Source: Telluria sp. (GTDB lineage Bacteria > Pseudomonadota > Gammaproteobacteria > Burkholderiales > Burkholderiaceae_D). From it: a DNA stretch of 64,000 nt. Positions 11,302 through 33,281 of the stretch are shown here, in pieces; the first letter of the stretch is position 1, and every line of letters starts with the position of its first letter. The stretch lies in assembly GCA_049301315.1 (NCBI GenBank), contig JBAQKU010000373.1, forward strand, positions 3,787 to 67,786, read 5' to 3'. The translations under genes and the position numbers were made by a program. The notes below the pieces were generated by a model, which was given only the letters and a program-made list of their open reading frames with translations, made no database searches and was not told the DNA's origin.

Positions 11302-11303
11302 TT

Positions 11304-11534: not shown

Positions 11535-12175
11535 TGTGATGGTTGGATTAGGGCAAACAACGACAGAATAGTACAAAATTTTCAATCCAGCAACGACCAC
11601 TGGCAAAATTCGGTAGCTGCATTCTCCGATTATCCGCCATGTTGTTTTGACGTACTTCGGGGCAAGCCAGCGCGCAAATTGGAGCGCGAAACCGCGAGGA
11701 CCTAGAGAACGCCACGGGTTACTGAAAGGCAGGGCGGAGACTTTTGATCCGGCGTAGGCGCGGCGGAGCCATATACCGGCATGGACGCCGTGCAGGTGAA
11801 AGCCACAAGCCGGATCGCACACACCATAAGCGCAAACCGCGCCAAAGAGGCGGCATACCTCCTTTGAGCTTCAAATGACTTGAGCCTGTCGAAATGGGTC
11901 CCGTGAAGAATCTGGGATCGACCGTTGTCGTAAACGTCTTTTACAACCTGGCCCAGGGTCTGTGGGTTGCTAACGAATGCCGGAATGCGCCGTTCGCTGA
12001 GCGCCGGGTTTCCCTGTCCACGCGGCCCTTAGGCCGAATCGAGGCGGCTTCGACACCTTGCTGGAGCAGCAAGTACCAGGGCTCCCCGCCACATCCTTGC
12101 CACAGGCTCAAAAATGTCGGCGCGGAGAATGGCGGATTTCTGCGGGTTATAGCGGACAGCTCTATGTGGCAAAAG

Positions 12176-12198
12176 CGGCCCCGAAGGGCCGCTTTTTG
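12176..12198. terminator. Bidirectional rho-independent terminator
   Basis: GCGGCCC-CGAA-GGGCCGC is followed by TTTTT on the plus strand and preceded by AAAA, which gives a T-run on the minus strand. It lies ~40 nt beyond the CCA end of the tRNA-Pro fragment. Confidence 0.6.
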
Positions 12199-12234
12199 TG
12201 AACCATTTAGCAGCTAAGTGATTGATTTCTCAAT

Positions 12235-12284
12235 GGTCGGAGTGACAGGATTTGAACCTGCGACCCCTTGCACCCCATGCAAAT
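12235..12284 (-). pseudogene. Truncated tRNA-Pro(GGG), 3' ~50 nt only (att-type repeat)
   Basis: The minus strand reads TTTGC-ATGGGGT-GCAAG GGGTC GCAGG-TTCAAAT-CCTGT CACTCCGA CCA. That gives an anticodon arm (GGG), T arm, 3' acceptor and CCA. No matching 5' acceptor or D arm lies upstream. Confidence 0.7.
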
Positions 12285-12307
12285 AAAAATCCCGCTAGAT
12301 CAGCGAC

Positions 12308-13543
12308 TTAGGTAAGGCTTGCCACAGACTCGCCACAGCTTTCCCGTGACACCCTGCTCAAGACCCCCTCGTCTATGTTCTCGCCATCGTCGAGGAGATG
12401 TCCATAGACATTCAATGTGGTCTCGATGTTCTTGTGCCCCATGAGTTTTTGCAGCTTCTTGAGGTTGGTCTTCTTCTCGATGTGGTACGAGGCGAAAAAG
12501 TGCCGCAGGTCGTACGGACGGTACTTTGGAACCGTTACCGTGCCTCCCTTTTTGTCCGTTATTTTGTTTCCGTTTTCGTCGATCTTTTCGACCATGAGCC
12601 CGGCTTTCTCGCAGGCGATATCGAAACCCCGCCGTTGCCAGTTGCGTCGGCACTGCCAAGAGCCGTTTCTATCGGGGAAGATGAGGTCATAGTCATTTTT
12701 TGATGCGATCTTCTCTGCATAGTGACGGACCAGCGACATCGTTCCCGGACTGAGATCGATGTGCCTACGGCCCGTAGGTGTTTTGGTTACGGAAATCTTG
12801 CTTCCATCCCCCTCAATGGCCCTTTCGACCCGGATGCCGTTTTCTGTCAGGGCTGACTTGGCTGCGGCCAAATACTCCTGCGGCCTCATGCCGGAATCCA
12901 CCGCCAGGTAGAGCATCGGGCGATAACGTTGCCACGGAACGGCGATTGTTTGATTGGAGACGCCACTGAGTTCATCTGCGGCACGAAGAAGTGCTTGAAT
13001 GTCGGCCATGCTCGGAATGACAACCGGCGTGTCGTAGCGGGAGTCGCTTCTCACGCTAATGCCAGCCGCGCAGTTGATTGGAATATGACCTCGCACGGTC
13101 ATTTCCTTCATCATGGACTGAAATGAGAACAGCACCTTTCCCGCGAGGTCGCGACTTAGGTCGCTGCGCAGTAGCCAGGAGCGGAACTCGACGACATCGG
13201 GAGCGGCCAGCTCTTGAAGATTTTTTGTCCAGAGATAGGCCTTGATGAACGAGGCGCGATATTTGTAGTTCTCCAAGGTGTAGTCGGTTACCGGCTCGCG
13301 ACCATTGAGCCCTTCTACTTCACAGATATCGAGCCACTGGCTCACGGCGGTCTTGACGGGAAGGCCGTGCTTCGGGTCCGTCCCGCCCTCGTCTTGGACG
13401 CCGCAGCTTTCCCGAAAGCTGCGCGCCTCTTTGGCCGTTCTGAAAGTCTTATAGGAATACCCAGTGCGCGCGGCCTTGTTGGCGTATCGCACCTGATACG
13501 TCGTTGTGCCATTTTTGGCCGTGCGCTTTCTGATATCGGACAT
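12308..13543 (-). CDS. int: Tyrosine site-specific integrase
   Basis: 411 aa. The C-terminal catalytic region has RPYDLRHFFAS and LMGHKNIETTLNVYGHL (R..HxxR..Y pattern). The gene ends 23 nt from the tRNA-Pro fragment. Confidence 0.9.
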   Translation of the reverse strand: MSDIRKRTAKNGTTTYQVRYANKAARTGYSYKTFRTAKEARSFRESCGVQDEGGTDPKHGLPVKTAVSQWLDICEVEGLNGREPVTDYTLENYKYRASFIKAYLWTKNLQELAAPDVVEFRSWLLRSDLSRDLAGKVLFSFQSMMKEMTVRGHIPINCAAGISVRSDSRYDTPVVIPSMADIQALLRAADELSGVSNQTIAVPWQRYRPMLYLAVDSGMRPQEYLAAAKSALTENGIRVERAIEGDGSKISVTKTPTGRRHIDLSPGTMSLVRHYAEKIASKNDYDLIFPDRNGSWQCRRNWQRRGFDIACEKAGLMVEKIDENGNKITDKKGGTVTVPKYRPYDLRHFFASYHIEKKTNLKKLQKLMGHKNIETTLNVYGHLLDDGENIDEGVLSRVSRESCGESVASLT

Positions 13544-14458: not shown

Positions 14459-14797
14459 ATGGACGATCACGCCCTGCCCTTGCCTTGCAAACGGGGCCTG
14501 TCGAAAGAACAGGCGGCGGACTATCTCGGGATCGGCGTTACGCTTCTGAGCGAACTGGACATTCCCTCTATCAAACTGGGCCGACGCTGCATCTATGATC
14601 GGCTTGACCTGGACATATGGCTCGACGATACTAAGAAGCGAGGGCGGGCCGGAAAGGAAACTTTATGGCCCAACAGAGTGGTGTCTACCGAAGGCCCGAT
14701 TCAAGGCACTGGTGGATTAGTACAACCCTTCCAGACGGCAGGCGCATACGCCAAAGCTCTGGGACTGAAATCCTCGAAGACGCGCAAGCGCTCTTAG
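14459..14797 (+). CDS. AlpA/excisionase-like HTH protein
   Basis: I use the internal ATG at 14459 ([55 protein letters not shown]). Its tail overlaps the integrase start in another frame, so the 3' end is uncertain. Confidence 0.5.
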
Positions 14798-15735
14798 CCA
14801 AGCTTACCCTTGACGCCTACAGAGCAACGCACTTCGGGATCAAGCCCAAGCGCAGTTGGCAGGAGGCTGTCGTTCGGTATCTCGCAGTCAAAGCTTCGCT
14901 GAGAAGTTATCGCGATCTACAGCGGATTTGTCGGATGCTGGATGTGTATTTGGGTGCCATGACGCTTGATCAGATGAACGGTGACGTGATCTGGTCGATT
15001 GTTCAACGGGAACTCAAACGCGGCAACAAACCAGCCACGGTAAATCGCTATCTGGCGCTCATTCGCAATTTATTGCGGATGGCGCGGGACGAATGGCAGT
15101 GGATTGATAACTTTCCGATGATTCGCCTGTTGCCGGGCGAGGTCGAGCGGGACCGCTGGCTCACGCGAGAGGAAGCGGACACACTGATTAACGTTTGTCC
15201 GCCGCATCTCGCCGCACTGGTACGGTTTGCTTTATCGACCGGATGCCGGGCCGGAGAGATTACGGGTCTGGAATGGGATCGTGTGGATTTGGACAGGCAT
15301 ACCGCCTGGCTCAATCGCACGAAGAATGGCACGTCGCGAGGGGTGCCGTTGAATTTGGATGCAGTTGCAGTATTGCAGGAACAGGTGGGAAACCATCCGC
15401 TGGCCTGTTTCACCTATCGCGGCGCGCCGATTCGTTGGGATGTTACCAATACGGCCTGGCACAATGCGACGCGCAAGGCAGGCTTAACGGATGTTCGCTT
15501 TCATGATCTGCGCCATACATGGGCGTCCTGGCATCGGCAAGCTGGGACGAGCTGTGACGAGTTGAAAGACTTGGGCGGCTGGAAGTCACGCAACATGGTG
15601 GATCGGTACGCAAAGTTTGCAACCGACAACCTTTCAGTTGCTGCGGCGCGGATTGAGCAAGCAAAGCAGGTGGATAACGTGATTCGGCTGTCACGTTTGC
15701 GTCACGTTCAGGAAACAAAAAAGGCCAGCACCTAA
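14665..15735 (+). CDS. int: Tyrosine site-specific integrase (phage-type)
   Basis: 356 aa. It has [30 protein letters not shown] and [16 protein letters not shown] (R..HxxR..Y). The gene ends 20 nt from the CCA end of the tRNA-Asn fragment. Confidence 0.9.
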
Positions 15736-15755: not shown

Positions 15756-15805
15756 TGGCTCCCCGACCTGGACTCGAACCAGGGACCTGCGGATTAACAG
15801 TCCAG
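15756..15805 (-). pseudogene. Truncated tRNA-Asn(GTT), 3' ~48 nt only (att-type repeat)
   Basis: The minus strand reads GGACTGTTAATCCGCAGGTCCCTGGTTCGAGTCCAGGTCGGGGAGCCA. This is nearly the E. coli tRNA-Asn 3' half, with a GTT anticodon loop, T arm and CCA. The 5' acceptor and D arm are absent. Confidence 0.75.
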
Positions 15806-16963
15806 CTGAAAAACCTTAAAAATCAAAATGATAGGCGATTTTTTTGTTCCGCTATTTAGTCGGCCTCATCAGAAAAATTGTGGGGCGTGGCGCAAAGCTG
15901 TGACTTCTTTGCGGAACGATACTGATGAAAGAGCCACCTTGGTCTTCTGGCCCTCCTCCAAGTGGCGTCCAGAGGCCAATGTCCACGATGTGCGGACCAC
16001 ATGAGACGGGGATTCGAACCCCTGATAGGTTATGAACCTACGGCTGGGGGGATTGCAGGGGCTACGGAGGGGCACGCCTCCCTATGAGAGCATCCCCACC
16101 ACTCCCCTGAAATCCCCTCAAAAATCCCCGCAATAATCCCAAAAAACCCAAAGTGGATTTCCGACAAGCGAACAGAGGTGGATGCAGCCGTCGCTTACGG
16201 CCCTTGGATGCTACGCGCGATTGGCGTGCATCAAGCGTCTGCTATGGCCAGGCAGATACCTTGTGAACTCCACTTGGAGCACACATGCAAGCAATATCCT
16301 CAACCCGCCCGAATCTCGCCAGCGCGCTGGTAGTTGACAATGGGCTCTCGCTCAATCATTTTTTTGGGAGACGCACGGCGGCCTTGTTCATGCATGCTAA
16401 TGGAATCAACTTTCGAGTAATTGTGCGCGTTCTGGCTGAACCCAAAAGTCGGCGCAATCACACCAAGTTCAACTAGCGTGCCCGTCGACCATCCGTTCCC
16501 GGTCCCAGCCAAAGCCACACTTAGCCACGCGATGATGCACGCGGCCGCAACCGCATAGCTGCAGGAATGTTGTCAGCAGCGGTTGTAAACTGACACAGGC
16601 ATCGATTGAAAACTGATACACCGATTTGAGAGGATGGTCGCTTCGCGGAGCGGCCTTAAAACCCAAAGAGGTGTACGTGGAAATTCAACTACTGAAGACA
16701 CGGGTTAAGCCTGCGGCAGATCGCCGCCGAGGTGGGCTGCGCGGTGAACAGGCAAACTAGGGGCGCGCACCACGAAAGTGCATCGAACACGTCGGCATCA
16801 AATACAGTGACGATACTGCATGGCAATAACTTGTCAGGTGTCAACGTAAGCATGCGTCGGTAGGCGTAGGCTGCTTTTGTAGGTTTCCTGCCGACACGGT
16901 CGCTGCACAGTGCTCGGATGAGTCCGAGGAAGATCGGGAAACGGAGAGATAGCACGCTAAGCT

Positions 16964-18379
16964 ATGGAGCTTTCGATGGGTTATGGTACAACCGATACGT
17001 GGCGCGTTTGGAGTGATCTCAGGCGCAAAGAAGATGATCTGAAATGGTGCGGACACCGGCCCGGCTCTGAGCAGCACTATGACAGCATGGGACGTGCCGC
17101 ACACGCCGCTTCCCATCTGTGCGGCTGGGGGAACGAGCAGATGGGGCGCGTGGACCGTGTGCGCCAAGCGTTAGCTGAGTCGGGACCGTCGGCGCAACAC
17201 ATGATTGCCCGAAGGCTTTCCGGCATCAACCTGTCAACGATCTGGCACATCCTCATTTCAGTGTGCGAGGATATCGCCCTGTATTACGGCGGATCGGTGG
17301 TCGCGGGCGGGCTGATCGGGGGATTCGGCGGGGCGTTCCTTGGCGGCGTTGGTGCGGTGCCAGGCGCGGCGGCCGGCGCGGCGGTCGGCAGCTATGTCGG
17401 CGGCGCGGTGTTGTCGATGCTGGGCTTGAAGTCGCTGGTCCTGGGCGTGGTCCAGTCCGTCCCCGAAGCATTGGATTACTACAAAAAAGGATTTCTCGAA
17501 GCGTGGGGGCCGACCCGGCAGGATCGCCTGCAGGGTTTCGGCATGACCGCACGAGGCAGCCCATCTTCGGCGGCGTTTTACCTGGCCCATGGCCACGTCA
17601 TCATGGTCACAACCATCCTTGCCGTGCTGCTGGCTTACGTTACCCGAGGGAAGGGCGACAAGGCGGCGCTGCTGAAGGAAATCGAACAGAGTCCGCGCCT
17701 GGGACCGAAAGTAGCGAAATGGGTCGAGCAAAACGAAGAAAAGCTACGCCATCACCCCGCGCTTCAATGGCGTGGCTCAGGAGGGGCCGGAGCACTGCCC
17801 CGTGAAGAGCCGCCCCTGCCGAGCCGCAGAGCCAGGCGGGAGCCAGAGCGCTCAAGGCCCAGTGGGATGCCGAAGAAGACGGTGCCGTGCTTCAAAACCA
17901 AGAGCTTACCTCAAGGCAGTGTGCCGGAGTTTGACCGCCAGCTCACCGGACAGGAGACGGGCATCAACAATATGACGGTTGATGAGTACCTCAACGGACG
18001 CGAGGCGTTTGAGTCAGAGAAATCGACGCGCAGTTCAAGCATTGCACGAAATGCGAGAGCTTCCTATGAAGGAAAAATGACTTTCGCTGTGGCGAAAAAA
18101 CTTCAAGAAGAAGGATTATCCTTGATAGAAGCTGACAAGAAAGCCGAACAGATAGCCGCTGAGAAAATGAAGACATTAGCGGCGCTGCATATCCCCGATA
18201 TGATTGCTGGCGGCAAGGATGTGATTGGCGACTTTGGGGATAGGAATATAAATTCGCGCATCGGAGCGCAATGGAATAAGGGAGGGCGATTGGCCGAACT
18301 CGATAAGGCTGCGAACGCTCTCCCACAAGCCATCCGCGCGATTACGAAGATGAACGTGAAGCTTGAACGGTGTAAATAA
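16964..18379 (+). CDS. Polymorphic toxin, Ntox15/Tde-like C-terminal DNase domain with glycine-zipper region (start uncertain)
   Basis: 471-aa ORF. It has a Gly-zipper stretch, GGLIGGFGGAFLGGVGAVPGAAAGAAVGSYVGG. The C-terminus has LAALHIPDMIAGGKDVIGDFGDRNINSRIGAQW with an HxxD motif, as in Agrobacterium Tde1/Tde2. Confidence 0.6.
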   Translation: MELSMGYGTTDTWRVWSDLRRKEDDLKWCGHRPGSEQHYDSMGRAAHAASHLCGWGNEQMGRVDRVRQALAESGPSAQHMIARRLSGINLSTIWHILISVCEDIALYYGGSVVAGGLIGGFGGAFLGGVGAVPGAAAGAAVGSYVGGAVLSMLGLKSLVLGVVQSVPEALDYYKKGFLEAWGPTRQDRLQGFGMTARGSPSSAAFYLAHGHVIMVTTILAVLLAYVTRGKGDKAALLKEIEQSPRLGPKVAKWVEQNEEKLRHHPALQWRGSGGAGALPREEPPLPSRRARREPERSRPSGMPKKTVPCFKTKSLPQGSVPEFDRQLTGQETGINNMTVDEYLNGREAFESEKSTRSSSIARNARASYEGKMTFAVAKKLQEEGLSLIEADKKAEQIAAEKMKTLAALHIPDMIAGGKDVIGDFGDRNINSRIGAQWNKGGRLAELDKAANALPQAIRAITKMNVKLERCK

Positions 18380-18388
18380 GGGAAAATC

Positions 18389-19006
18389 ATGGATGAAAAT
18401 TTCGCGTATTTTATAGAGAAGTTGGGTCCGGCCTTCGACAAGCGCGACGTTCCGCGGTCGAGCATCGAACGCTACCGTGGCAAGCTGCCGGATCAATTGT
18501 TGGCGTATTGGGAAGAATATGGTTGGTGCGGCTATGGAGACGGCCTGTTCTGGACCGTTAACCCCCAGGAGTACGAGCCAGCGTTAGAGGCATGGATCGG
18601 TGATACGCAATTCATGGAGCAGGATGCGTATCATATTATCGCAAGAAGCGCATTTGGAGATTTATATTTTTTCGGAGAAAAAACTGGCAGCAATCTTCAG
18701 ATTGTTGCTGCTGACGCAAATGCAATTGCCGATAGCTATAGGACATCAGATCTGAATAGGAACGTGAAGGTATTCTTTAGCGCCCTTAACAAAGCAGGTT
18801 GTGATCATAGTGATGTTGATGGCGTCAAACTTTTCGCTCGCGCATTAAAAAAATTGGGCCGACAAAAGCATGATGAAATATATGGTTTCGTGCCCGCACT
18901 AGCTCTCGGCGGCCCCGCCACGCTGGATCACTTGCAAAGAGTCAAAGCTGTAGAGCATTTAGTCCTACTTGCCCAGCTCGCGCCATTGAACGTGATTTCC
19001 GTCTAG
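18389..19006 (+). CDS. Cognate immunity protein, GAD-like + DUF1851-type (Tdi-like)
   Basis: 205 aa, starting 10 nt after the toxin stop. Strings such as LPDQLLAYWEEYGWCGYGDGLFWTVNP and AFGDLYFF are typical of GAD-like/DUF1851 immunity proteins as I remember them. Confidence 0.6.
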   Translation: MDENFAYFIEKLGPAFDKRDVPRSSIERYRGKLPDQLLAYWEEYGWCGYGDGLFWTVNPQEYEPALEAWIGDTQFMEQDAYHIIARSAFGDLYFFGEKTGSNLQIVAADANAIADSYRTSDLNRNVKVFFSALNKAGCDHSDVDGVKLFARALKKLGRQKHDEIYGFVPALALGGPATLDHLQRVKAVEHLVLLAQLAPLNVISV

Positions 19007-23694: not shown

Positions 23695-24202
23695 CGGCCA
23701 GTGCGGTCCCGGCACCCCTGCGGGCACGCTACCGGAAGCCGCGCCGGCGGTGTGCAACGCCAGCGGGTCATTCCGCTGCCGCAGCCGAGCTTACGCGGCA
23801 GATACTCCCAAAGCCTTCTAGTCTTGAGAACGGACAGGGTGCCCGTCAGCGCTGTCCGGTCATCAATGCGCGGTCGGCCACCTGTCGAACAGACGGTGAA
23901 TTGGGCATGAGCATCGAAAAAGGAGTAGAGCTCGTAGGGAAGGAGTGCTGGGCTATGGCGTCAGTTCCGGCTGAGGAAATACACGTCATGGAAATACGCT
24001 GCCCGTGACGACCTCCGGTGCCTACGGACTGGAGGCTTGTACTTCCGGTTTACGACCCAGTGCGGCCGTGACGACGTTAGATGCTTCCAAATGCACGCTC
24101 TTTGTCAGTCCGCTTTGGGTCGAAGGAAACGGTCAGCCAAGCGGCCGTTTTGATCGACCGTTTTCGCCCCCAAGGAGTCATTGGATTTTCTCCGACGCTG
24201 AC

Positions 24203-24260
24203 ATTTAACGTCAAAGCTCACGGGCGGCCGAAGGCCGTCCGGTGGAGCGCGAGGTTAGAT
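24203..24260 (-). repeat. attC site (58 nt)
   Basis: The minus strand reads ATCTAAC-CTCGC-GCTCCAC-(20 nt)-GTGAGC-TTTGAC-GTTAAAT. The L boxes pair except for one bulged C on the ORF-proximal arm. The 554-aa ORF reads through this site. Confidence 0.75.
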
Positions 24261-25875
24261 TCACCTCTCGGACCTTCAAGACCACGCTCGCAACATCCTT
24301 GACTAGAGCGCGTGCTTGCGGAGCCGTTACTTCAGCTCTGGTATGAGCTATCCGATTCCTCAGTGCCACGTGGGCGCGAAGCTGTGTGTAAAGCTTCGGT
24401 TCAAGAATTTCGCGCGATTTCGCAAACTCGAGTAGCTGACCCAAGCTTGATCTAGTCATGAACTTGTCGAATCCGGCGATTTCCATGTTCTGCCGGAGCT
24501 CATGTTCCAGCAAAGAGAACGCCGCGATGACCGCGGCTCGGTATTCCTTCTTGGCAATGAGGCGGCTCGGTTCATCTTCCAATGCCGGAGAGAGTTTCTG
24601 AAAGGCAGCCGCAAAAGCGGACTCAAGCGCCTTTAGAAAAGTGGTCGATTCACCGTCTAGTGTGCGAGGCCTGCGGATGACTAGATGCATTCCAAGATCA
24701 AATGGAACGCTAGCGTCATCCTCTACAATTAGGATCAGCGGCTTGGCCATTCCTTCTTTGGATAGAACCATTCCCACTTCGAATACCGTGTTTGGTGAGC
24801 TCAGGTCCGCAACAACAACAGCAGACTTCTCGATCAGTGCGTAGACCTTAGCCATTAGGCTATCGCCCGGCGCGATCACTTCAGCCGCCATAACAGGACT
24901 GAAGCCGTACTGTTCGGCAATCGGGTAGACGCGTGCCTTATACAGCGCTGCATACCGCGTAGGCACTGAAAAGAATGCTAGGCGACTCTGGGCACTTGGA
25001 GGAAGCGACAGTTCGGCTTGCGGTTCGAGCTCAGTTGAGGTGCTTTGGGAGATCACCTGTGAAGTCCAGTACTCTCGAAGTTCCCGAAAAACGGCCTCAA
25101 GTACCTCTGCGTAAGACTTTGAGGAACTCTTGGGGAGGTTAATGACCTTGACTCCTCGCCGTTCGTAACGCGCTACGAGGTTCGCAGGAGCCCCAACTTG
25201 CAGTACATACGCGGGGCGGCGTAGGGCGCCGAGCCTCTCTTTGACCACTTGCCAGATTTGGCGAAAGTCCGGATCGTCAAGGCTGTATCCAATGAAGAAC
25301 GCCGTGTGGTCAATGAGCAGGCTTGCCAAATGAGTTGCGAGCAGAGGCAGGCTGTTCAAGAACGCGTCATAGTCTTCTTCTGTTACGACAAGGCGATTGG
25401 GGTGGTGCAGGTCGCCGTGAAGTTTCAAAAGCCGCACGCCCGCTTGGGGGTCGCCTACTGCGAGTTGATCTTCTGCCACTAGGGGAATGCAATACCTGTT
25501 CAGTTTCGCGTAGGCCTGTTCAAGTAGGAAATCAAAGTTGGTCGTGACTACTCTATCAAACGGTAGGCGGCAGAATTCTTCGTGGGTCTTTGCAGGTTGG
25601 ATGCTGGCGATGAGCAGTGCAGAGGACAGAAACTCTACGAGTTTCACTCTTGAAAACTCGTGAGAGTACGCCGACAGCGCTTCTAGCGCGGTTGTGTACT
25701 GGTACTCTGGAAGCGCCGCGGCCACCTGCTTCCCTAATCCGTCCCAATCGAGCATCTTCTTGCCTCTCGGGATCTTGGCATTGAGCGAGAAGCCGGCTCC
25801 GACAAAGGGGAGGCATCGCCCACGAACGATGTCTTCTAGGAAAGGTGCAGGGAAGTGGCTTATGTAGTCGGGCAT
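24211..25875 (-). CDS. SIR2-family (SIR2_2-type) protein fused to a TIR/NDT-like Rossmannoid module and a C-terminal HEPN-like domain
   Basis: 554 aa. SIR2-type strings are LPFVGAGFS, VVTTNFD and LLKLHGDLHHP. The middle module reads AVVVADLSSPNTVFEVGMVL...PLILIVEDDASVPFDLG. The C-terminal helical region carries ALRNRIAH (Rx4H). Confidence 0.7.
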   Translation of the reverse strand: MPDYISHFPAPFLEDIVRGRCLPFVGAGFSLNAKIPRGKKMLDWDGLGKQVAAALPEYQYTTALEALSAYSHEFSRVKLVEFLSSALLIASIQPAKTHEEFCRLPFDRVVTTNFDFLLEQAYAKLNRYCIPLVAEDQLAVGDPQAGVRLLKLHGDLHHPNRLVVTEEDYDAFLNSLPLLATHLASLLIDHTAFFIGYSLDDPDFRQIWQVVKERLGALRRPAYVLQVGAPANLVARYERRGVKVINLPKSSSKSYAEVLEAVFRELREYWTSQVISQSTSTELEPQAELSLPPSAQSRLAFFSVPTRYAALYKARVYPIAEQYGFSPVMAAEVIAPGDSLMAKVYALIEKSAVVVADLSSPNTVFEVGMVLSKEGMAKPLILIVEDDASVPFDLGMHLVIRRPRTLDGESTTFLKALESAFAAAFQKLSPALEDEPSRLIAKKEYRAAVIAAFSLLEHELRQNMEIAGFDKFMTRSSLGQLLEFAKSREILEPKLYTQLRAHVALRNRIAHTRAEVTAPQARALVKDVASVVLKVREVNLTSRSTGRPSAAREL

Positions 25876-25893
25876 CTGTGAGTGTATTGGCGA

Positions 25894-25980
25894 ATCTAAC
25901 GTAGAGCTAACCGGCGCTGCGCAGCTTTATCGCGCAGCGGCCAGCGACCGAAGGGAGCGAGGTTCAGCGCCATGTTAGAT
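25894..25980 (-). repeat. attC site (87 nt)
   Basis: The minus strand reads ATCTAAC-ATGGC-GCTGAACC-(48 nt)-GGTTAGC-TCTAC-GTTAGAT, with one bulged base in the ORF-proximal L box. The TAA stop of the 320-aa ORF lies inside the RYYYAAC box. Confidence 0.8.
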
Positions 25981-26937
25981 TTCGTGTTCACCGCTTGGAT
26001 TTCTGTTGGTCAGCCCGATCAGGCGCTTAGTAAGCTTTCCGCGGAGATCTCGTAAGTTGTCATAGTCGGGGCAATTGTAGCCAGCAAGGTCAAAGTGAAG
26101 GCCCGTGCCGGACTTGCGAAATAGAATCACGCGCTTGCCAAGAGCATGAGCAAAACCAACCTCATAGTAGACGTTTGGTCTTGCCCCAGTCAGATCGGCG
26201 AATAGGAATTCAGAAGTGTGGATTTCAGAGAGAATTCTGTCCGTGATAAGGCCCTCGTGTTCGATATCGTCGGCCCGCAAGGCCTTAATACCAAAGCACG
26301 AAAATACTGATTTCACCGTATCCGCAACGTCAGTAAGCTCAGGAAGTTTTTGATCCATCCACATCATGATGAATGCCGTGCCTGCACGGTACTTAGTAGG
26401 CGCTACGGTTGTACCAGACGGCAGCATAGCCGCTTCGAACTCCCTTCCCGATTCGACTAGCTTTAGTACAGTGCGGAGTTTGGATAGACCGTCAAAAAAG
26501 ACTTTTTCGGCCTCTATGGGTACTAAGCCAAGTCTCTCGGATTGTTCTGCTGGTCGGAACCCGAGAACTCTGTCCTCGTCATGTATTACGTGGGGTTCTT
26601 GATACTGATAGCGTCTTAGTAGAAGGGCCGCCCGCATGGCTTTCGCGGCATTCTTCACATCCTGCACATCTTCATTTCCAGTAAGGGGCGCCGCTTTCGC
26701 AACTTGCGCAACTTGAGCGGCAATACGCAGTAGGCGATCAGAGATGCCGTTAGCAATGTCTTTCGTGGGATTGGCAAGTAGCTCCCAAAGGTCGGCAACC
26801 TCGTAATCTATGCCCCACCCAAAAGGGCCTTGCTTTGCATGTGGCTCACACTCAACCTTCGCTTGGCGGAAGTAGCCTTCTGCATCGCCTGCGATTGAGG
26901 CAACTTCGGCGGAAACGTCTAGATGTTCGGTCGCCAT
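25975..26937 (-). CDS. Hypothetical cassette protein: helical N-terminal half + TIR/NDT-like Rossmannoid C-terminal module
   Basis: 320 aa. The C-terminal AFIMMWMD...FLFADLTGARPNVYYEVGFAHALGKRVILFRKSGTGLHFDLAG aligns by eye with the middle module of the 554-aa SIR2 protein. Confidence 0.6.
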   Translation of the reverse strand: MATEHLDVSAEVASIAGDAEGYFRQAKVECEPHAKQGPFGWGIDYEVADLWELLANPTKDIANGISDRLLRIAAQVAQVAKAAPLTGNEDVQDVKNAAKAMRAALLLRRYQYQEPHVIHDEDRVLGFRPAEQSERLGLVPIEAEKVFFDGLSKLRTVLKLVESGREFEAAMLPSGTTVAPTKYRAGTAFIMMWMDQKLPELTDVADTVKSVFSCFGIKALRADDIEHEGLITDRILSEIHTSEFLFADLTGARPNVYYEVGFAHALGKRVILFRKSGTGLHFDLAGYNCPDYDNLRDLRGKLTKRLIGLTNRNPSGEHEI

Positions 26938-26950
26938 GATGTTCCAAGAA

Positions 26951-27006
26951 ATTTAACGTTGCGGTTCAGCGGCGCCGCAGGCGTCCGCTGGAATATGTGG
27001 TTGGGC
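26951..27006 (-). repeat. attC site (56 nt)
   Basis: The minus strand reads GCCCAAC-CACAT-ATTCCAGC-(16 nt)-GCTGAAC-CGCAAC-GTTAAAT. It has classic 59-base-element size and geometry, with a bulged C that gives an extrahelical G on the bottom strand. Confidence 0.85.
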
Positions 27007-27014
27007 AAACTGAA

Positions 27015-27275
27015 TCATTTAGTGTGGCGCTCCAAGAATGCGACCGCTTTTTCGGTTAGCTTGAGCGGTTGAGGGCCTCCACCTTCAACAAAATCAGTCA
27101 TGCGGCCGACCGACCAGGATTCGACGGTTCCGTCAACAAATACAAGTCCATGGTCGTCACCTCGGTAGTCATGCCAGTAGGAAGCTACAAGATGACCATC
27201 CCGAAGAATTTGATACTTGTATTCGTCGAAGTCTTCTCGCCTCCGTGAATTATCGCGTTCGATCGAATAGCTCAT
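27015..27275 (-). CDS. Small hypothetical cassette protein (86 aa)
   Basis: ATG at 27275 lies 6 nt downstream of a GTTGGGC core site. The longer track ORF (to 27323) would begin inside or beyond the core. No motif recognised. Confidence 0.45.
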   Translation of the reverse strand: MSYSIERDNSRRREDFDEYKYQILRDGHLVASYWHDYRGDDHGLVFVDGTVESWSVGRMTDFVEGGGPQPLKLTEKAVAFLERHTK

Positions 27276-27730
27276 GATGGGGCCCAACTGGTACTTATAC
27301 AAACAGGACGGGCCGGTATGCATGGTGGAAGGCTGATAAACACTTTGGTCTGTTCCTCCAGAAGCCGCACCAGTGCTAGCTTCGGCATCAAACTGTATAT
27401 GCGCACAGTGCTAAATTATCGTGAAACACGTCACACCCGAGAACGTTCGCCACAACCGCCAAAACTGTTCGATCAGCGAGTCGTTACATTAAGGAATTAT
27501 TGCAGTCTACGTACTGAATGCGCCTGTGTCTACTGGACAAGATGGAACGTTTGGTTTGATTGTCCGAATAAATAAATTTAGTCACCAGGCGGATGACTGC
27601 TCCTGGCCGGTTCCGGCCGGTCGTGACAGTCCGTGATTTTTCCAACGTAGCAAGATGCTATGCTATATCAAACGGCCGGGTTCGGCCAGAAGCGGACAGT
27701 AGGAGGAGCTATACTAATTGATCAGCTTCG

Positions 27731-28660
27731 ATGAAGGAAACAGCGATGTCGCGTCTAGGTATAGATGTCAACACAGGGCTAGTGTACGAGGGCCGCACTG
27801 GGCCAACTCATCCAGTCTGGCCGTCACCGCCAGTTTGCAACGCAACCTCGCTCGAAACGCCAAGTGATTTGCAAAAAGTTCCGCGAAGCTTTACAAGTGA
27901 TCCTTTCGGTTGGATTTTTGTTGAGACATCCTTCGATTTTGGTACGAGGGTTCGGCGCGGCAGGTTATACCAAAATTTTGGCAATGTGAGCAAGGAAACG
28001 GTTCAAGTTGAGGCCCATCCGGCTGTTCACTCCGACCTGATTAAGGCTGCAAATAATGGATGGCGCGTTCCGAAGGAACTGACGGTCTACATCGAGGGCA
28101 CGGACCTACTTCTCCGGCGCATTAGAGGTGAAGGTGCAAGAATAGCATTAGGACAAGCTGATGCCTATTCCGTCTGGAAAATCGTTCAGGTAGAGCGTTC
28201 CCTTGGATCTGATGTGCTTCTCACACTGCGTGCTGAATCAGCGTTAGGCATATTGCCGGAACTTGACACTACCAGAATCAATCCGTCAAATTTCGCAACC
28301 GTGAAGTCAGCATACGATCGGGCTTTGGACGCCGCTTATCGAGAACTTCCAACATCAGTCGTTGACCAATGTCGAAACGCGGCTGTTGTATTCATTTCGA
28401 GGTGGATGCAACAGGAGGAAGGTTTGGAATTGCCCTTAGAAAAGGATCTTGGCGCTTGGATCAAAGCGATACAGATCCGGTTTGGCGAAAGGGAAAAGGT
28501 AGCGCTTCGCTCCACCTTAGAAATCATCGCCAAACTTCATTCCAGGGGCAAGGATAATGAACGACATAAAATGTCGCTAAGGACGGTGGAAGAGGATGAT
28601 GCAGCACTCGTCGTACAAGCGCTAGGATTCATATTGCGCGAGATTGGATGGGCCGCTTGA
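27731..28660 (+). CDS. Hypothetical 309-aa protein (alternative start 27746)
   Basis: Clean ORF in the AT-richer cargo block, 176 nt upstream of the Gabija-like pair. GAAGGAAA precedes the second ATG (27746). I recognise no family. Confidence 0.5.
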   Translation: MKETAMSRLGIDVNTGLVYEGRTGPTHPVWPSPPVCNATSLETPSDLQKVPRSFTSDPFGWIFVETSFDFGTRVRRGRLYQNFGNVSKETVQVEAHPAVHSDLIKAANNGWRVPKELTVYIEGTDLLLRRIRGEGARIALGQADAYSVWKIVQVERSLGSDVLLTLRAESALGILPELDTTRINPSNFATVKSAYDRALDAAYRELPTSVVDQCRNAAVVFISRWMQQEEGLELPLEKDLGAWIKAIQIRFGEREKVALRSTLEIIAKLHSRGKDNERHKMSLRTVEEDDAALVVQALGFILREIGWAA

Positions 28661-28836: not shown

Positions 28837-30540
28837 GTGAAAATTAGAAGAATAACTATCAAGAACTTTCGCGGCGTTAAGGAGCTTGAATGGAGTTTGC
28901 CAGCAAGCGATATTTTCTGCTTGATTGGCAAGGGCGACTCTTCCAAGTCCACTATTCTGGAGGCCATTCGTTATGCCTTCTACCCTCAATGGAATCCCAT
29001 TTTTACCGACGCAGATTTCCACCAGTGCAAGGTTGACGACAGCATTATCATTGAAGTGACCTTTGGCGATTTGATACCCGACTTCTGCTCATTGCAAAAA
29101 TATGGCAATCATCAACGGGGCTGGGATAAGGCAACCCAGACGCTCGTTGATGAAGAGGTTGATCCCTTGGAGCCGGTCCTGACGGTTCGCCTGACTGTCG
29201 GCAAGGAACTGGAACCAAAGTGGGTCATCTATACTGATCGGACCCCTGAAGGCGTGCCGTTCAAGCAAGCAGATCGCAACAAGGTCAGTGTTGGGCTGAT
29301 CGGTGCTTACAGTGAGAGGCAGCTATCGTGGGCGACTGGCACGGCACTGGCGAAACTGACCGAAGCCCAAAGCTTGAACGAGCTCTTGGCTACCGCCTCC
29401 AGAACTGCCCGCACGTCGCTGGACGTCGACCGCCTGGTAACGCTCAAGAATTTTGACGCTGCTGCTGAGAAGTCGCAGGTTATAGCCAAGCTCCTTGGCG
29501 TGCCGGTCAACACCTCATACCAGGCGCACTTGGATTTAAGTTCTATCAACCTGAAGGTGGGTGGCTTGGCACTGCATGATGGCGACATTCCACTGCGTCA
29601 GTTAGGCTTGGGCTCTCGGCGCATGCTCCTGTGCGGGATTCAACAAGTAGGCTTGGACGACGGCCACATCACCTTGTTTGACGAGGTTGAATTCGGCTTG
29701 GAGCCGCACCGAATTTCTCGCCTCATCAAGCATGTAAGGGAAGACAAGCGGGGTCAATATTTCCTGACGACGCATTCGCCTGTTGTGCTGCGTGAGCTCA
29801 CCGTGAAGGAGCTTTACATCGTCCACAGCAAGGCCGGTGTCGTTAAAATCATTCCTGCCTTTTCTGAAAGCTTGTCAGAGCATGAGGCTCAAGGAAAAAT
29901 TCGTTCAAGCGCTGAAGCGTTCTTGGCGAAAAAGGTCATCGTCTGTGAAGGTGCCACTGAGGTTGGATTTCTGAGAGGATTTGATGACTACCAAGTGCGG
30001 AAGGGAGGTGATCCGTTTTCCTATCATGGTGTCGCACTGCTCGATGTAAGGGGCGGCAGTAAGGTCAAGGCAATGGGGAGAGCTTTCCATTTCCTCTGCT
30101 ACCAAGCATGCGTGTTTGCCGACGCTGATGCAGACGATCAATTTTCCCCTGCCGACAAAGCTGAGTTGGAAAAACTTGGGGTGCCCGTGTACGTCTGGGA
30201 CGACAAGCTGTCGTTGGAGCAGCGGCTCTTCCAGGACTTGCCATGGGCCAGCGTCCTTGCCAGTGTAAAACTTGCTAAAGAACTGGCTTATGTGGTCCAC
30301 AACCAGATTCATTCAAAGTTTCAAGAGGACTTGGACAAGGACATGGGCCTTTGGGAAGACACCCCAAAACTACGAACGGCCATCGGTTTGGCTGCAAAGA
30401 AAGGCGAGTGGTTCAAAGACATTACGCGAGGCGACAAGTGGTTCTCAACCATAAGCCCGGCGTTTGCAGATCCGAATTTTGCAGAAAAGGACACTGCCTT
30501 AAAGCTGGCCCTGCTGTGGACATGGGCCTCCAATGTCTGA
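28837..30540 (+). CDS. gajA: GajA-like OLD-family ATPase + TOPRIM nuclease
   Basis: 567 aa, GTG start. It has ITIKNFRGVKEL...LIGKGDSSKST (P-loop variant), FDEVEFGLEPH (Walker B region), and TOPRIM VIVCEGATEVGFL plus VFADADADD. Confidence 0.75.
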   Translation: MKIRRITIKNFRGVKELEWSLPASDIFCLIGKGDSSKSTILEAIRYAFYPQWNPIFTDADFHQCKVDDSIIIEVTFGDLIPDFCSLQKYGNHQRGWDKATQTLVDEEVDPLEPVLTVRLTVGKELEPKWVIYTDRTPEGVPFKQADRNKVSVGLIGAYSERQLSWATGTALAKLTEAQSLNELLATASRTARTSLDVDRLVTLKNFDAAAEKSQVIAKLLGVPVNTSYQAHLDLSSINLKVGGLALHDGDIPLRQLGLGSRRMLLCGIQQVGLDDGHITLFDEVEFGLEPHRISRLIKHVREDKRGQYFLTTHSPVVLRELTVKELYIVHSKAGVVKIIPAFSESLSEHEAQGKIRSSAEAFLAKKVIVCEGATEVGFLRGFDDYQVRKGGDPFSYHGVALLDVRGGSKVKAMGRAFHFLCYQACVFADADADDQFSPADKAELEKLGVPVYVWDDKLSLEQRLFQDLPWASVLASVKLAKELAYVVHNQIHSKFQEDLDKDMGLWEDTPKLRTAIGLAAKKGEWFKDITRGDKWFSTISPAFADPNFAEKDTALKLALLWTWASNV

Positions 30541-31966
30541 TGAACTGGCAATCACGCTTGGAAATTGCACGACCAAAGGGTATGTAATTGCCCCCGCTGG
30601 ATACGGCAAGACCCATCTGATTGCCATGGCGGTGAAAACCGCCAACCAGAGGCAGCTAATCTTGACGCACACGTTTGCGGGTGTGAATTCAATCAAGGCC
30701 AAGATGGCGGCTTTGAAGGTGCCAGCCTCGCAATACCAGGTTGACACGATAGCCAGTTGGTCGCTGCGGTTGTGCTTGGCCTATCCCAAGGGTTCGGGTT
30801 GGAAGGTGGATAGCCCTTCAAGCAAGCAGTGGGACAAGCTCTATGAATCCTGCTCGGGCCTGCTTACCAAGGCGTTCATACGGCACATTATCTTGTGCAG
30901 TTATGCCGGCGTCTACGTGGACGAATATCAAGACTGCTCAGACCTCCAGCACCTACTGGTGTGTAGGTTGGCCGACATCCTCCCATGTCGTGTCCTGGGC
31001 GACCCCATGCAGGCTATTTTTGACTTTGAGAATGGCCAGAAGCCAGTTGACTGGGACGCTAGTATTTATCCCCACTTTGAGTGTCTTGGGAAGCTGGAGA
31101 CGCCATGGCGCTGGGACAATGCAAAAGCGCCTTTGCTTGGCGCCTGGTTAAAGAAGTGTCGTGAACGGTTGGAGAAAGGTATGAAGCTTGATCTCGTCAA
31201 TGGGGTGCCAGTGAGCGTGACGCGGGTCTACACTGGACCGGACTTCCTTCCTCAGAATCAATACACCTCGCTCATGAAGTTGTTTAACACCGAAGGCTCG
31301 GTCATTGCTCTTCACGGCGGCGATCAACTGCTCAAAGCAAAGACGCACGCTCTGGCTCGTATGTTGAGCGGGAAGTTCTCGTCTATTGAAGAAGTTGAAG
31401 GGAAGGCACTTCATTCCATCATCAAAAAACTTGTGACAGCCAAGAGTACCAAAGCGGCCTTTCTTCATGCGTTGGATTTTGCGAAGAAGTGTTTCACGGG
31501 TGTAGACAATGCTCTTGCGGCAGGAACAAAAAAAGGCGAAGTCGCCAAGCAGATTAAGACAACGAAGTATCCGTTTATGTTGAAGGCGGCTAATCTTTAT
31601 CTAAGTGACCCAACCACGAAAAACCTGAACGCCTTCTTCCTGGAACTAAAAGAGAATCCAGGAACGTCACCTTTTAGAAGGGACTTGTTCTACCGTTTCC
31701 TGAATGTTTTGAAAATGCATATTGATGGTGAGGGCGACACGTTGAATGATTCAGCGAAGCTCTACCAGCGTGATATGAGGCATACCGGCAGGCCAATCCG
31801 TCATACGAAGCTCATTGGCACCACGTTGTTGGTGAAAGGCTTGGAATACGACCATGCGATTATTTTGGACGCCGATAGTCTTGACGCAAAAGACCTGTAT
31901 GTTGCCATGACCCGTGGCGCAAAATCGTTGACGATCATTTTTACAGGCAATCCGCTTCCAGTTTAA
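30533..31966 (+). CDS. gajB: GajB-like UvrD-family helicase
   Basis: 477 aa with an 8-nt overlap with the gajA-like gene. It has APAGYGKTH (Walker A), VYVDEYQD (motif II), and LVKGLEYDHAIIL / VAMTRGAKSLTII (motif VI region). Confidence 0.75.
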   Translation: MSDELAITLGNCTTKGYVIAPAGYGKTHLIAMAVKTANQRQLILTHTFAGVNSIKAKMAALKVPASQYQVDTIASWSLRLCLAYPKGSGWKVDSPSSKQWDKLYESCSGLLTKAFIRHIILCSYAGVYVDEYQDCSDLQHLLVCRLADILPCRVLGDPMQAIFDFENGQKPVDWDASIYPHFECLGKLETPWRWDNAKAPLLGAWLKKCRERLEKGMKLDLVNGVPVSVTRVYTGPDFLPQNQYTSLMKLFNTEGSVIALHGGDQLLKAKTHALARMLSGKFSSIEEVEGKALHSIIKKLVTAKSTKAAFLHALDFAKKCFTGVDNALAAGTKKGEVAKQIKTTKYPFMLKAANLYLSDPTTKNLNAFFLELKENPGTSPFRRDLFYRFLNVLKMHIDGEGDTLNDSAKLYQRDMRHTGRPIRHTKLIGTTLLVKGLEYDHAIILDADSLDAKDLYVAMTRGAKSLTIIFTGNPLPV

Positions 31967-32116
31967 GAGCGCCTAACAAAACCACTTACTTGCTCTGACA
32001 GCAACAAGCCCGTACACTGGACCGTTCCGACCGCCCGCTTTCGGCCAGAAGCGGTCCGTGGAGACCGTTTTCTAGACGCAGGACGTCGGACATGCCAGAT
32101 CAATGCAGAGTAAAAA

Positions 32117-33082
32117 ATGACAATTCAGCACCCGCTTCAGACAAAAGTGTCGGAACTCAATCTCGACCCAACTTTGCATATGAACATGGTGAGGAACCTT
32201 ACGAGTGCGCTATGGGCCCATATCAGCGGGAAACGCCGCCTGTCTATGGCTGCGATTGCGTATCGTGTAAATGAACTACTTCGCTATACCGTCTTGATAC
32301 CAATACCAATTCCATTGGAAGAAATGATCTGCTTTACCCGTGCGACAAAGTTTGATGGAACCGAAACAAACCACTGCTACAAAAAAGTAGCCCGACTATC
32401 ATATCTGCCACTTGATCACGCGAAGTGCCCAGAATTGGGCAGGTTAAATAAGGAAGGGGATCGTCTATTCTATTGTTGCTGGGATGTTAACCACATATCG
32501 CTTTTTGCTTCCTTGGCTGAAATTAGGGCAGTTGATGGTGACGTGGTAAATATATTGGTGAGCCATACGAAACCTACGACGAGTCCTGTCCGCCAAGATC
32601 AATTCTTGTACGTTACTCCAATTGGTATAAATGACTATTTTTACCGGGGTGCGGACCTACCATTTGTTCTCCACAATTCCTACAGGCAGCACTATGAATT
32701 TCTTGCCCAGAATCTTCGGCCTCGTGCGTTAAGAGCAATGCTCGACTGCGATCGTTTTCTAGTGAAGGTCTTGAGCATGGAGGAAGTAGAAGGCCTGTAT
32801 CAGGTGACTTCTGAGATCGCTAAGAATTGTCTTGGCAGTTCGAATATTGACGGAATAATCTACCCTTCAACCAGATTTGGCGGTTTCCCGAACATCGGAC
32901 TGAAGATTGCCTCTGTCGATTCGAAACTTCAGCACGTCGGAGCCAAATCTGTCGAGGTACATCAAGGTGGAAAAGCCTACAAAACGCTCTACAACGGTTT
33001 TATAGATGGTGAAAAAATTATCTGGATTTCGGCAGACGGCCCAGTTACTGTCGATGGAGTTCAAGTGCAGAGCACCGATTAG
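32117..33082 (+). CDS. RES-domain protein (solo; no adjacent Xre/ParS-type antitoxin gene)
   Basis: 321 aa. It shows the R...E...S pattern: LGRLNKEGDRLFYC, SLAEIR, IDGIIYPSTRFGG. Confidence 0.55.
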   Translation: MTIQHPLQTKVSELNLDPTLHMNMVRNLTSALWAHISGKRRLSMAAIAYRVNELLRYTVLIPIPIPLEEMICFTRATKFDGTETNHCYKKVARLSYLPLDHAKCPELGRLNKEGDRLFYCCWDVNHISLFASLAEIRAVDGDVVNILVSHTKPTTSPVRQDQFLYVTPIGINDYFYRGADLPFVLHNSYRQHYEFLAQNLRPRALRAMLDCDRFLVKVLSMEEVEGLYQVTSEIAKNCLGSSNIDGIIYPSTRFGGFPNIGLKIASVDSKLQHVGAKSVEVHQGGKAYKTLYNGFIDGEKIIWISADGPVTVDGVQVQSTD

Positions 33083-33281
33083 GCAGCAGGTATTCAATAC
33101 TGATGCTGAACGCCCGCTTTGGGTCGACCCAGACATGCGCAATCTGACACGTCCTGTTAGGTCACGTCACAACTTATAATCTAGGGCAATTTCTAATTTT
33201 CTCGTTCGACCTTCATATCAGATGTCAGCTTCGGGGCGGAAGCAGCCGCTCTTACGCAAGGTGTCAGGCCACTACCACATA

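Follow-up and report, generated by a model that had tools for sequence, protein, structure and literature searches.

Arrays of integron cassettes that stand apart from any integrase gene are an established element of bacterial genomes. The category of integrase-less cassette array, or CALIN, was defined for the IntegronFinder program, and its possible origins were given as loss of intI or rearrangement mediated by insertion sequences (IS) (Cury et al. 2016, PMC4889954). Of the 279 CALINs in the same survey, 15 had an intI pseudogene close by, as judged with profiles for the C-terminal part of IntI and for PF00589. Defence systems have been shown experimentally to occur as cassettes in mobile integrons, where they are called BRiCs (bioRxiv 10.1101/2024.07.02.601719), and a companion study cited there reports such cassettes from the Vibrio superintegron. 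The present analysis deals with a small cassette array in 64,000 nucleotides of DNA from Telluria sp. (assembly GCA_049301315.1, contig JBAQKU010000373.1, positions 3,787 to 67,786), referred to below as the window. The array lies between the kfrB and traM genes of an IncP-1-like conjugative element, and the segment from 23.76 to 27.57 kb is, with good confidence, what remains of a non-class-1 integron whose integrase is gone; this remnant would count as a CALIN under the IntegronFinder definition.

The locus resembles described CALINs in having three attC sites of the same polarity within 4 kb, each after a promoterless open reading frame (ORF), with no functional IntI nearby. Its cassettes are not resistance cassettes, and an IS fragment at the end of the array fits an IS-mediated origin (PMC4889954). 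It differs from those CALINs in retaining a relic of intI together with a probable attI, and in that an IncP-1-like conjugative element carries it, not a chromosome. A relic of this N-terminal kind would have been missed in the published survey, because a C-terminal IntI profile was used (PMC4889954).

Two other described systems are close. Class 1 integrons are found on IncP-1 plasmids, and the array is likewise an integron-derived accessory load of an IncP-1-type conjugative backbone. Unlike these integrons, it is located between kfrB and traM and has no DNA match among the plasmids of PLSDB, and there is no intI1, qacEdelta1, sul1 or tni module among the proteins of the window. Like BRiCs, the array places defence genes as cassettes on a conjugative element, and homologues also occur outside integrons (in this case, of the SIR2 gene in cassette C). 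BRiCs, in contrast, reside in class 1 and class 2 integrons with a working integrase, the words SIR2 and TIR are absent from the text that describes them (bioRxiv 10.1101/2024.07.02.601719), and the defence role of the cassettes described here is a prediction from protein domains. CALINs, defence cassettes and IncP-1 integrons are all established, and the locus is a clear rather than unusual example of a known element. What is specific to it is the combination of a non-class-1 integron remnant, environmental cassettes that are essentially absent from PLSDB, and an IncP-1-like conjugative element.

Organization of the locus

Three co-oriented ORFs occupy the minus strand between 27.3 and 24.2 kb, and each is followed by an imperfect palindrome. 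The features of the segment are as follows.

27453 to 27557, plus strand: relic of the intI N-terminus, about 35 codons (PPKLFDQRVVTLRNYCSLRTECACVYWTRWNVWF), decayed and divergent from the cassettes; the frame reaches a stop at 27575
27504 to 27532, minus strand: candidate cassette promoter TAGACA-17-TAGACT, from a consensus scan, inside the intI relic and directed toward the array
27282 to 27288, minus strand: GTTGGGC core, the probable attI crossover; the G at 27288 belongs to the platform and TTGGGC is the 5' end of cassette A
26957 to 27287, minus strand: cassette A, 331 nt, comprising an ORF of 86 amino acids (27275 to 27015) and attC1
26951 to 27006, minus strand: attC1, GCCCAAC-CACAT-ATTCCAGC-(16)-GCTGAAC-CGCAAC-GTTAAAT; 34.0 bits, E 8e-6 with the covariance model R1 (see below)
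25900 to 26956, minus strand: cassette B, 1057 nt, comprising an ORF of 320 amino acids (26937 to 25975) and attC2
25894 to 25980, minus strand: attC2, 87 nt, ATCTAAC-ATGGC-GCTGAACC-(48)-GGTTAGC-TCTAC-GTTAGAT; R1 33.8 bits, E 8.7e-6
24209 to 25899, minus strand: cassette C, 1691 nt, comprising an ORF of 554 amino acids (25875 to 24211) and attC3
24203 to 24260, minus strand: attC3, ATCTAAC-CTCGC-GCTCCAC-(20)-GTGAGC-TTTGAC-GTTAAAT; R1 34.6 bits, E 5.9e-6
23983 to 24202, minus strand: DNA distal to attC3, about 220 nt, read from the sequence as a possible stump of a fourth cassette, with low confidence
23760 to 23982, minus strand: frame-shifted fragment of an IS5-family transposase gene (DUF4096 N-terminal domain, Pfam 5.9e-6 on the translation)

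The stop codon of the 320-amino acid ORF of cassette B falls within its R'' box, ATCTAAC, as had been pointed out in the initial annotation, which was made from the sequence alone. The ORF of cassette C runs through attC3, which encodes its last 17 or so codons, and stops in the spacer just 5' of GTTAAAT. At the other end of the array, the GTTGGGC core lies 6 nt 5' of the ATG of cassette A at 27275.

The attC sites

The sites were evaluated with a calibrated covariance model (R1) built from 19 attC sites, none related to the window: class 1 arrays supplied 15 of them, and the integron on a Kovacikia (cyanobacterial) plasmid the other 4. The class 1 sites are those that follow blaVIM-11, aac(6')-Ib, blaOXA-1, catB3, dfrA14, estX, psp, aadA2, cmlA1, aadA1, qacL, a gcu cassette, qacG2, dfrA17 and aadA5. 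The consensus structure, with canonical R and L boxes and a bulge at position 4 of L'', was imposed on the model and is backed by its alignment, in which 80.5% of cells are paired (versus 72% after shuffling) and covariation is 0.273 (versus 0.156). The model is home-built and distinct from that of IntegronFinder, which retains sites with E < 1 (PMC4889954). It was run with filters off on both strands of all 64 kb (128 kb searched). Rfam holds no attC family and returned nothing in 23.6-28 kb at E <= 1, with traJ-II alone reaching the gathering threshold.

Exactly three significant matches were obtained in the window, all on the minus strand, and their ends agree to the nucleotide with the three attC sites that the initial annotation had proposed. 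Their scores of 33.8-34.6 bits are far above the next best match, which reaches 15.1 bits (54433-54524, minus strand, E 0.23). In control integrons and arrays the same model scores the attC sites at 14-45 bits, and it finds no match in the non-integron loci fetched for comparison.

All three sites have the canonical 7-5-8...7-6-7 layout, with R'' and R' boxes that contain AAC...GTT; the 19 reference sites, too, show AAC and GTT without exception. In the R1 alignments the bulged base is at L'' position 4 in all three cases, on the ORF-proximal arm, so that the sites share the polarity of the three ORFs, just as had been proposed. The extrahelical base of the bottom strand is a G in attC1 and attC3 and a C in attC2. 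Bottom-strand folding with DNA parameters, a check suggested in the initial annotation, gave the expected R box, unpaired spacer and bulged L-box hairpin for sites 2 and 3; site 1 folded only into the stem formed by the L box and variable terminal structure (VTS). The three sites fall within 2.8 kb in one polarity, and a CALIN is defined by at least two within 4 kb and the lack of an integrase gene close to them. In both score and architecture, these sites match the attC sites of working integrons and are indistinguishable from them.

Cassette boundaries in other arrays

Look-ups of the exact sequences of the two larger cassette proteins retrieved no record, and the homology search lists identical or near-identical entries from a Telluria sp. 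MAG. Homologues of all three cassette proteins are common across metagenomes, and several lie in arrays whose boundaries can be compared with those in the window. A close relative of cassette A is the fourth cassette (5988-6322) of a complete integron, L014, in which a divergent intI of 329 amino acids (3771-4760) is followed by six attC matches. The two cassettes are 87.5% identical over 335 nt (window 27288 to 26954). Homology extends from the first base of GTTGGGC into the GTT of the attC1 R' box, and the flanks are unrelated on both sides. The attC1 orthologue itself (6270-6325 in L014) differs at few positions.

Cassette B is 81% identical in nucleotide sequence (window 26959 to 25974) to the third cassette of another complete integron, L004, which sits beside uvrC in a Parasulfuritortus metagenome-assembled genome (MAG). 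This integron has an intI of 325 amino acids (5982-6959), an attI ending in ...ACACGTTAGAG, and three attC matches. The homology extends from 2 nt upstream of the R' core G (26957; G|TTAGAT) to the stop codon in R''. The L004 copy of the gene bears an unrelated attC (8958-9026), with the breakpoint at the shared R'' sequence ATCTAAC (window 25974-25980); attC2 instead resembles the site of the first L004 cassette (7413-7502), with 94% identity across the 82 nt at 7415-7496. The differing attC sites on these orthologous cassettes suggest, from their sequences, an attC swap or a deletion between R'' boxes.

Two further arrays, L003 and L018, include cassette C, which begins in both at the same G|TTAGATTCGC as in the window and has differing upstream neighbours. 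The first of these has a truncated intI (detected by the NCBIfam integron integrase model, E 6.8e-10), an attI, four attC matches and a fifth ORF after the last of them. The second has seven attC matches at E <= 0.1 and no intI within its 8-kb contig. Between attC3 and its L003 orthologue (7797-7862), both arms of an L-box pair have changed in a compensatory way, with CAC/GTG in the window and AAC/GTT in L003. The gene of cassette C is also found outside any array, in L001 and L002, where the protein is 86-88% identical, the homology is limited to the ORF, and R1 finds no attC. Relatives of A and B thus lie beside an intact intI, and those of C beside a truncated intI (L003) or in an array without intI in view (L018).

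Other arrays therefore contain each of these cassettes as a unit of its own, delimited at G|TT. The initial annotation had named such a comparison of boundaries as a check on its proposal, and homology with L014, L004, L003 and L018 begins at the predicted junctions and, for cassette A, ends at one too. Neither of the outcomes that it gave as refuting the proposal, low attC model scores or boundaries unrelated to G|TT, was observed. These four arrays belong to the sedentary chromosomal integrons of environmental Betaproteobacteria and other bacteria, with which the locus shares cassettes at 75-87% nucleotide identity, an attC that is 94% identical to attC2, and an intI divergent from attI and the cassettes. 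It differs from them in that its intI is reduced to about 35 decayed codons, in that only three cassettes are present, and in that the attC of cassette B is not that of L004.

A sceptical reading would take the three sites for terminators, repetitive extragenic palindromic (REP)-like sequences or other common intergenic hairpins whose agreement with a permissive attC consensus is fortuitous. In its favour, RYYYAAC and GTTRRRY are brief, degenerate boxes, the folding z-scores reach only -1.4 to -2.4, and another, unrelated hairpin motif does recur in the same island. An independent model, however, assigns each site an E value near 1e-5 and finds nothing comparable elsewhere in the window, attC2 is 94% identical to an attC of a complete integron, and the homology breaks at G|TT in four independent arrays. 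The R1 scores, the identity between attC2 and the L004 site, and the breakpoints of cassette A in L014 refute this explanation, and its probability is now negligible.

The probable integron platform

A complete integron has an intact intI adjoining attI, and here a relic of about 35 codons is all that was found. When the IntI protein of L004 was used in a tblastn search, its residues 8-41 matched 27459-27557 on the plus strand (E 0.065). A hidden Markov model (HMM) of IntI N-termini, run against the six-frame translation of the window, returned the same stretch as its sole match (E 1.5e-4, with the next at 0.42). An HMM built only from four full-length IntI proteins scored the relic at 16.6 bits (E 4.5e-4); across 30 shuffled windows the maximum was 9.8 bits. 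The peptide, PPKLFDQRVVTLRNYCSLRTECACVYWTRWNVWF, retains the signature LLDQ...YSLRTE...W, corresponding to LxDQ...SLRTE...W in the family, and no more IntI similarity is detected after the frame stop at 27575.

The relic is on the opposite strand about 165 nt from the GTTGGGC core, which is the arrangement of intI in L003, L004 and L014; the attI regions of these three also end in ...AC-GTTAG. Upstream of the core, R1 finds no attC and the intI relic is present. From these sequence features, the core is most likely the attI crossover point. The initial annotation was right to place this core at 27288 to 27282, 6 nt before the first ATG, and described it as a lone one. Because the intI relic is divergent and located about 165 nt away, as in L003, L004 and L014, the core can instead be read as attI and the whole as a degenerate integron, an assignment that is probable rather than proven.

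It is also conceivable that the CALIN was made de novo, with an IntI acting in trans to insert the cassettes serially at a secondary GTT site of the plasmid, where neither intI nor attI ever existed. On this account it is no surprise that alignment with four other attI regions uncovers no attI-specific similarity or that curated integrase models are blind to the relic. A recognisable intI pseudogene is also not found near most CALINs (PMC4889954), and a preprint reports integrase-mediated cassette insertion outside att sites (bioRxiv 10.1101/2022.09.11.507474). The account does not, on the other hand, explain why the only stretch of the window that resembles an IntI N-terminus should be located about 165 nt from the core and divergent from it, as in L003, L004 and L014, or why it bears the motif typical of the family. 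A chance match of such strength within this 450-nt interval and on this strand is very unlikely, and de novo assembly is considered an unlikely origin for the array.

Several observations nevertheless weigh against the interpretation as a degenerate integron. The relic is short and weak (16.6-18 bits), and Pfam and NCBIfam miss its translation even though NCBIfam detects the comparable relic of L003. Apart from the GTT core, the putative attI has nothing conserved in common with the four other attI regions aligned to it; dissimilarity between the attI sites of different integron classes is expected, but it lends the assignment no positive support. The promoter candidate TAGACA-17-TAGACT would be analogous in its position within the relic to Pc, which is inside intI1, but the promoter and terminator scan does not rise above the expectation from shuffled sequence. 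The finding that no intact IntI is present covers the 64-kb window, and the cell may encode one elsewhere. Among the attC sites, the extrahelical bottom-strand base of attC2 is C where G is usual. The R box of site 1 is poorly paired, and its full hairpin is not the minimum-energy fold; the L-box/VTS stem forms alone because the GCCCAAC and GTTAAAT boxes pair mainly through G-T.

A few other candidates for platform components were considered and rejected. Two tyrosine recombinases are present in the window, at 12308-13543 (minus strand) and 14665-15735 (plus strand), and they score 30.5 and 21.8 bits with TIGR02249, the integron-integrase family model, against a cut-off of 265. The 309-amino acid ORF at 27731-28660, located where intI would sit, contains no recombinase domain in Pfam or NCBIfam. 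A metagenome scan with a 21-mer across the attI core retrieved one contig (L020), which shows no further resemblance to the window, lacks attC sites and is a chance match.

The statement in the initial annotation that no IntI-like recombinase, attI or class 1 context is visible in the window needs to be qualified. There is indeed no functional IntI and no class 1 context, and neither of the two tyrosine recombinases is an IntI, but the recombinases do exist, as do an intI relic and a probable attI. In the same way, the array fits the definition of an integrase-less CALIN, while the idea of a bare insertion into the kfr-traM gap gives way to that of a degenerate integron.

If the segment is such a degenerate integron, the cassettes would have been assembled at attI by an IntI before intI was truncated, probably upon insertion or deletion of neighbouring DNA. 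The cassettes could then no longer rearrange by themselves, although excision and recapture might still occur if a resident integron provided an IntI in trans. Transcription of the cassettes would start from a promoter in the region of attI and the intI relic.

The distal limit of the integron-derived segment is the IS5-family transposase fragment, which is 71% identical in nucleotide sequence to a similar pseudogene beside a decayed array in the metagenome contig L017. Between attC3 and this fragment lies an ORF of 34 codons whose stop is in an ATCTAAC box (24083 to 24077). No 3' half that matches this box and no R1 match for attC are found within 23983-24202. From its sequence, the DNA between attC3 and the IS fragment may be the stump of a fourth cassette.

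Predicted products of the cassettes

The initial annotation characterized the cassette genes as defence-like. By their domains this applies to B and C, whereas cassette A encodes a protein in which the Pfam, PADLOC and NCBIfam scans recognise no domain. The protein of cassette A has 86 amino acids. The 102-amino acid version in the initial annotation, which would start at 27323, is unsupported, because all 24 of 24 homologues have 83-107 residues, most of them 83-92; the start at 27275 is used here.

In cassette B, the C-terminal domain matches Pfam Nuc_deoxyrib_tr (8.8e-5), CAP12-PCTIR_TIR (1.8e-3) and a PADLOC TIR effector model (7.8e-11). The AlphaFold model has a predicted local distance difference test (pLDDT) value of 77. 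In Foldseek, its best matches are nucleoside deoxyribosyltransferases (NDT) and DNPH1, with prob 1.0 and a target-normalised template modelling (TM) score of 0.6-0.75. The domain carries the motif RPNVYYEVGFAHALGK, and ...PNVYYEVG... is invariant. The N-terminal domain, of helical/beta composition, has no assigned function.

The protein of cassette C consists of an N-terminal SIR2 domain, a Rossmann-like middle domain (residues 299-402 approximately) and a helical C-terminus with only faint hints of a HEPN-type domain. The SIR2 domain matches Pfam SIR2_2 (7.1e-26) and the PADLOC models of ThsA (2.5e-30) and Dsr2 (2.4e-23), and the protein is below the family cut-offs for Dsr1/Dsr2. Sequence matches in the PDB are ThsA, DSR2 and KomC (E 1e-10 to 1e-13 for ThsA and DSR2). 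Foldseek recovers ThsA and DSR2 with E ~1e-12 (2e-12), with a TM score of 0.73-0.78 on the isolated SIR2 domain of DSR2. The likeness to ThsA and DSR2 in sequence and fold is thus in the N-terminal SIR2 domain. Cassette C differs from ThsA of Thoeris in having no conserved ThsB partner and an extra helical C-terminal domain, and from DSR2 in that its protein is far shorter, at 554 amino acids. More than 100 homologues are conserved from residue 8 on, which favours the 554-amino acid start at 25875; in the public annotation of the source MAG the SIR2 gene is 514 amino acids long (start region 25756-25875).

We infer from these sequences that B and C would be two independent, single-protein abortive-infection defences that deplete NAD+ or nucleotides, rather than a Thoeris pair. 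Each would destroy NAD+ or nucleotides on sensing phage, B by way of its NDT/TIR-like N-glycosidase domain and C by way of its ThsA/DSR2-like SIR2 NADase. The predicted catalytic residues are E259 in B and a SIR2 histidine in C, either H153 or H158, each of which is invariant.

The two genes might alternatively constitute a two-cassette Thoeris-like system, in which B makes a nucleotide signal that is sensed by a SLOG-like middle domain of C. They are adjacent and co-oriented, B has a TIR-related fold, and C aligns structurally with ThsA over about 420 columns, corresponding to SIR2 and the following Rossmann-like domain. In addition, a weak similarity links the C-terminal domain of B to the middle domain of C (E 0.003; shared ADL..PN..(Y/F)EVG). 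Yet the genes are found apart in five other contexts, B without C in L004 and L019, and C without B in L003, L018 and L001/L002, and the neighbours of C in its other contexts show no TIR signature. Because B and C are apart in every other context examined, they are probably no Thoeris pair. Each also has its own attC and so moves independently, and the C-terminal domain of B is closer to nucleoside deoxyribosyltransferases and DNPH1 than to the TIR domains that produce signals. The pair is thus an improbable one. If it did exist, Thoeris-like signalling would be split over two attC-bounded units, joined by integron recombination on a conjugative element, with sensor and effector separately swappable; this scenario is to be considered just as doubtful.

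Defence-type genes also appear to be carried by the plasmid integron of Kovacikia minuta (plasmid pB, NZ_CP083584, positions 1-8000; L009), where intI is followed by genes for a DNA cytosine methyltransferase and an AAA ATPase. A gene for a TIR-domain protein of 1049 amino acids is located near that integron.

Backbone and accessory island

The window belongs to an IncP-1-like backbone, as judged from its domain content in Pfam and other collections (KorB, KfrB, TraM, a ParA-like TraL, the TraI relaxase, TraG, an ArdC-primase protein, TrbL, TrbI and TrbE) and from an oriT with a traJ-II RNA (Rfam, 101.9 bits). The synteny of a related backbone, L013, agrees. This was the sole return of a scan of a genome collection with TraM, and in it kfrB directly follows traM and there are no cassettes. 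Because traM adjoins kfrB in L013, the roughly 12 kb from 21.3 to 33.2 kb can be recognised as accessory, and the array was correctly placed by the initial annotation in the kfr-traM accessory DNA.

In order, this island contains a 669-amino acid ORF of unassigned function, the IS fragment, the integron remnant, a 309-amino acid ORF, gajA, gajB and a 321-amino acid ORF. The remnant is therefore one module of a roughly 12-kb island, shared with Gabija, between kfrB and traM of the conjugative element. The Gabija system is at 28837-31966 on the plus strand, with GajA of 567 and GajB of 477 amino acids (PADLOC E 1e-201 and 1e-160). The flanking 309- and 321-amino acid ORFs (27731-28660 and 32117-33082) have no detectable domains. 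Neither Gabija nor these two ORFs can be counted as cassettes, since R1 finds no attC with any non-integron gene of the island.

The initial annotation located the array just after traK-L-M. It is in fact about 5.6 kb from traM, with the 309-amino acid ORF, gajA, gajB and the 321-amino acid ORF in between. In RP4, the side of oriT that carries the leader operon (traK-L-M) enters the recipient first, and by analogy the side with the array would do so here.

A megablast search of PLSDB with 23.5-28 kb gave no match, and one with 1-23.5 kb gave only short backbone matches, so that the backbone has distant kin at most in this collection. At the protein level, the SIR2 protein of cassette C has PLSDB matches of just 42-44%, and the NDT/TIR-like protein of cassette B has none.

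A hairpin motif of the approximate form GnCCGCTTyKGGyCGAA is repeated in the island, at 24108-24124 (within the region of the possible stump), 27673-27700, 32032-32059 and 33105-33126. All copies are in the 24-33 kb island and follow the 3' ends of modules, and against the four matches in the window at no more than 3 mismatches the expectation is 0.37. The block of the 309-amino acid ORF, gajA and gajB lies between the copies of a 28-nt direct repeat (82% identical). Similar hairpin motifs come after cassette-like ORFs in two unrelated metagenome contigs, at about 3684-3750 and 4190 in L017 and at about 3360 in L019. The motif could be REP-like, could terminate transcription, or could mark where another kind of mobile unit is joined.

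At 15757-15803, 20 nt after the tyrosine recombinase gene 14665-15735, there is a partial tRNA-Asn(GTT) gene in reverse complement, consisting of its 3' half with CCA included. It is 91-98% identical to Neisseria and Acinetobacter records, a second tRNA-like 3' end follows about 250 nt on (approximately 16000-16040), and ARAGORN and Rfam call no complete tRNA at the fragment. From its sequence the fragment resembles an att site, such as an integrative element would have. The whole element may then be an integrative and conjugative element (ICE), or an island may have inserted itself into the element. The contig that contains the related backbone L013 is 379 kb long.

Further defence and toxin genes are found elsewhere in the window. 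A second defence island on the minus strand (232-13543) encodes an OLD-family ATPase/TOPRIM protein, a type III-like restriction helicase-endonuclease, an N6/N4 methylase, a DUF4391 protein, an SNF2 helicase, an HTH_17 protein and a tyrosine recombinase of 411 amino acids. A polymorphic-toxin pair is just upstream of korB (16964-19006, plus strand), consisting of a DUF6861/Ntox15 toxin (471 amino acids) and a GAD-like/Tdi1 immunity protein (205 amino acids). Inserted between the Tra1 and Trb genes is a type I restriction-modification system (44805-52135, plus strand) with HsdR, HsdS, an AAA_13 ATPase and HsdM.

Implications

The locus is a clean and fully bounded case of cassettes of chromosomal environmental integrons reaching a conjugative element of a broad-host-range type. 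Transfer onto such an element is the step that makes integron cargo widely mobile, and the cargo here is putative phage defence rather than antibiotic resistance. The locus also illustrates one concrete route to a CALIN, in which intI is truncated and attI and intact attC sites are left behind. Profiles of the IntI C-terminus would miss N-terminal relics of this kind, and some of the CALINs without a pseudo-intI could therefore be decayed integrons. Finally, cassettes B and C provide widespread, uncharacterised single-gene candidates for defence by depletion of NAD+ or nucleotides.

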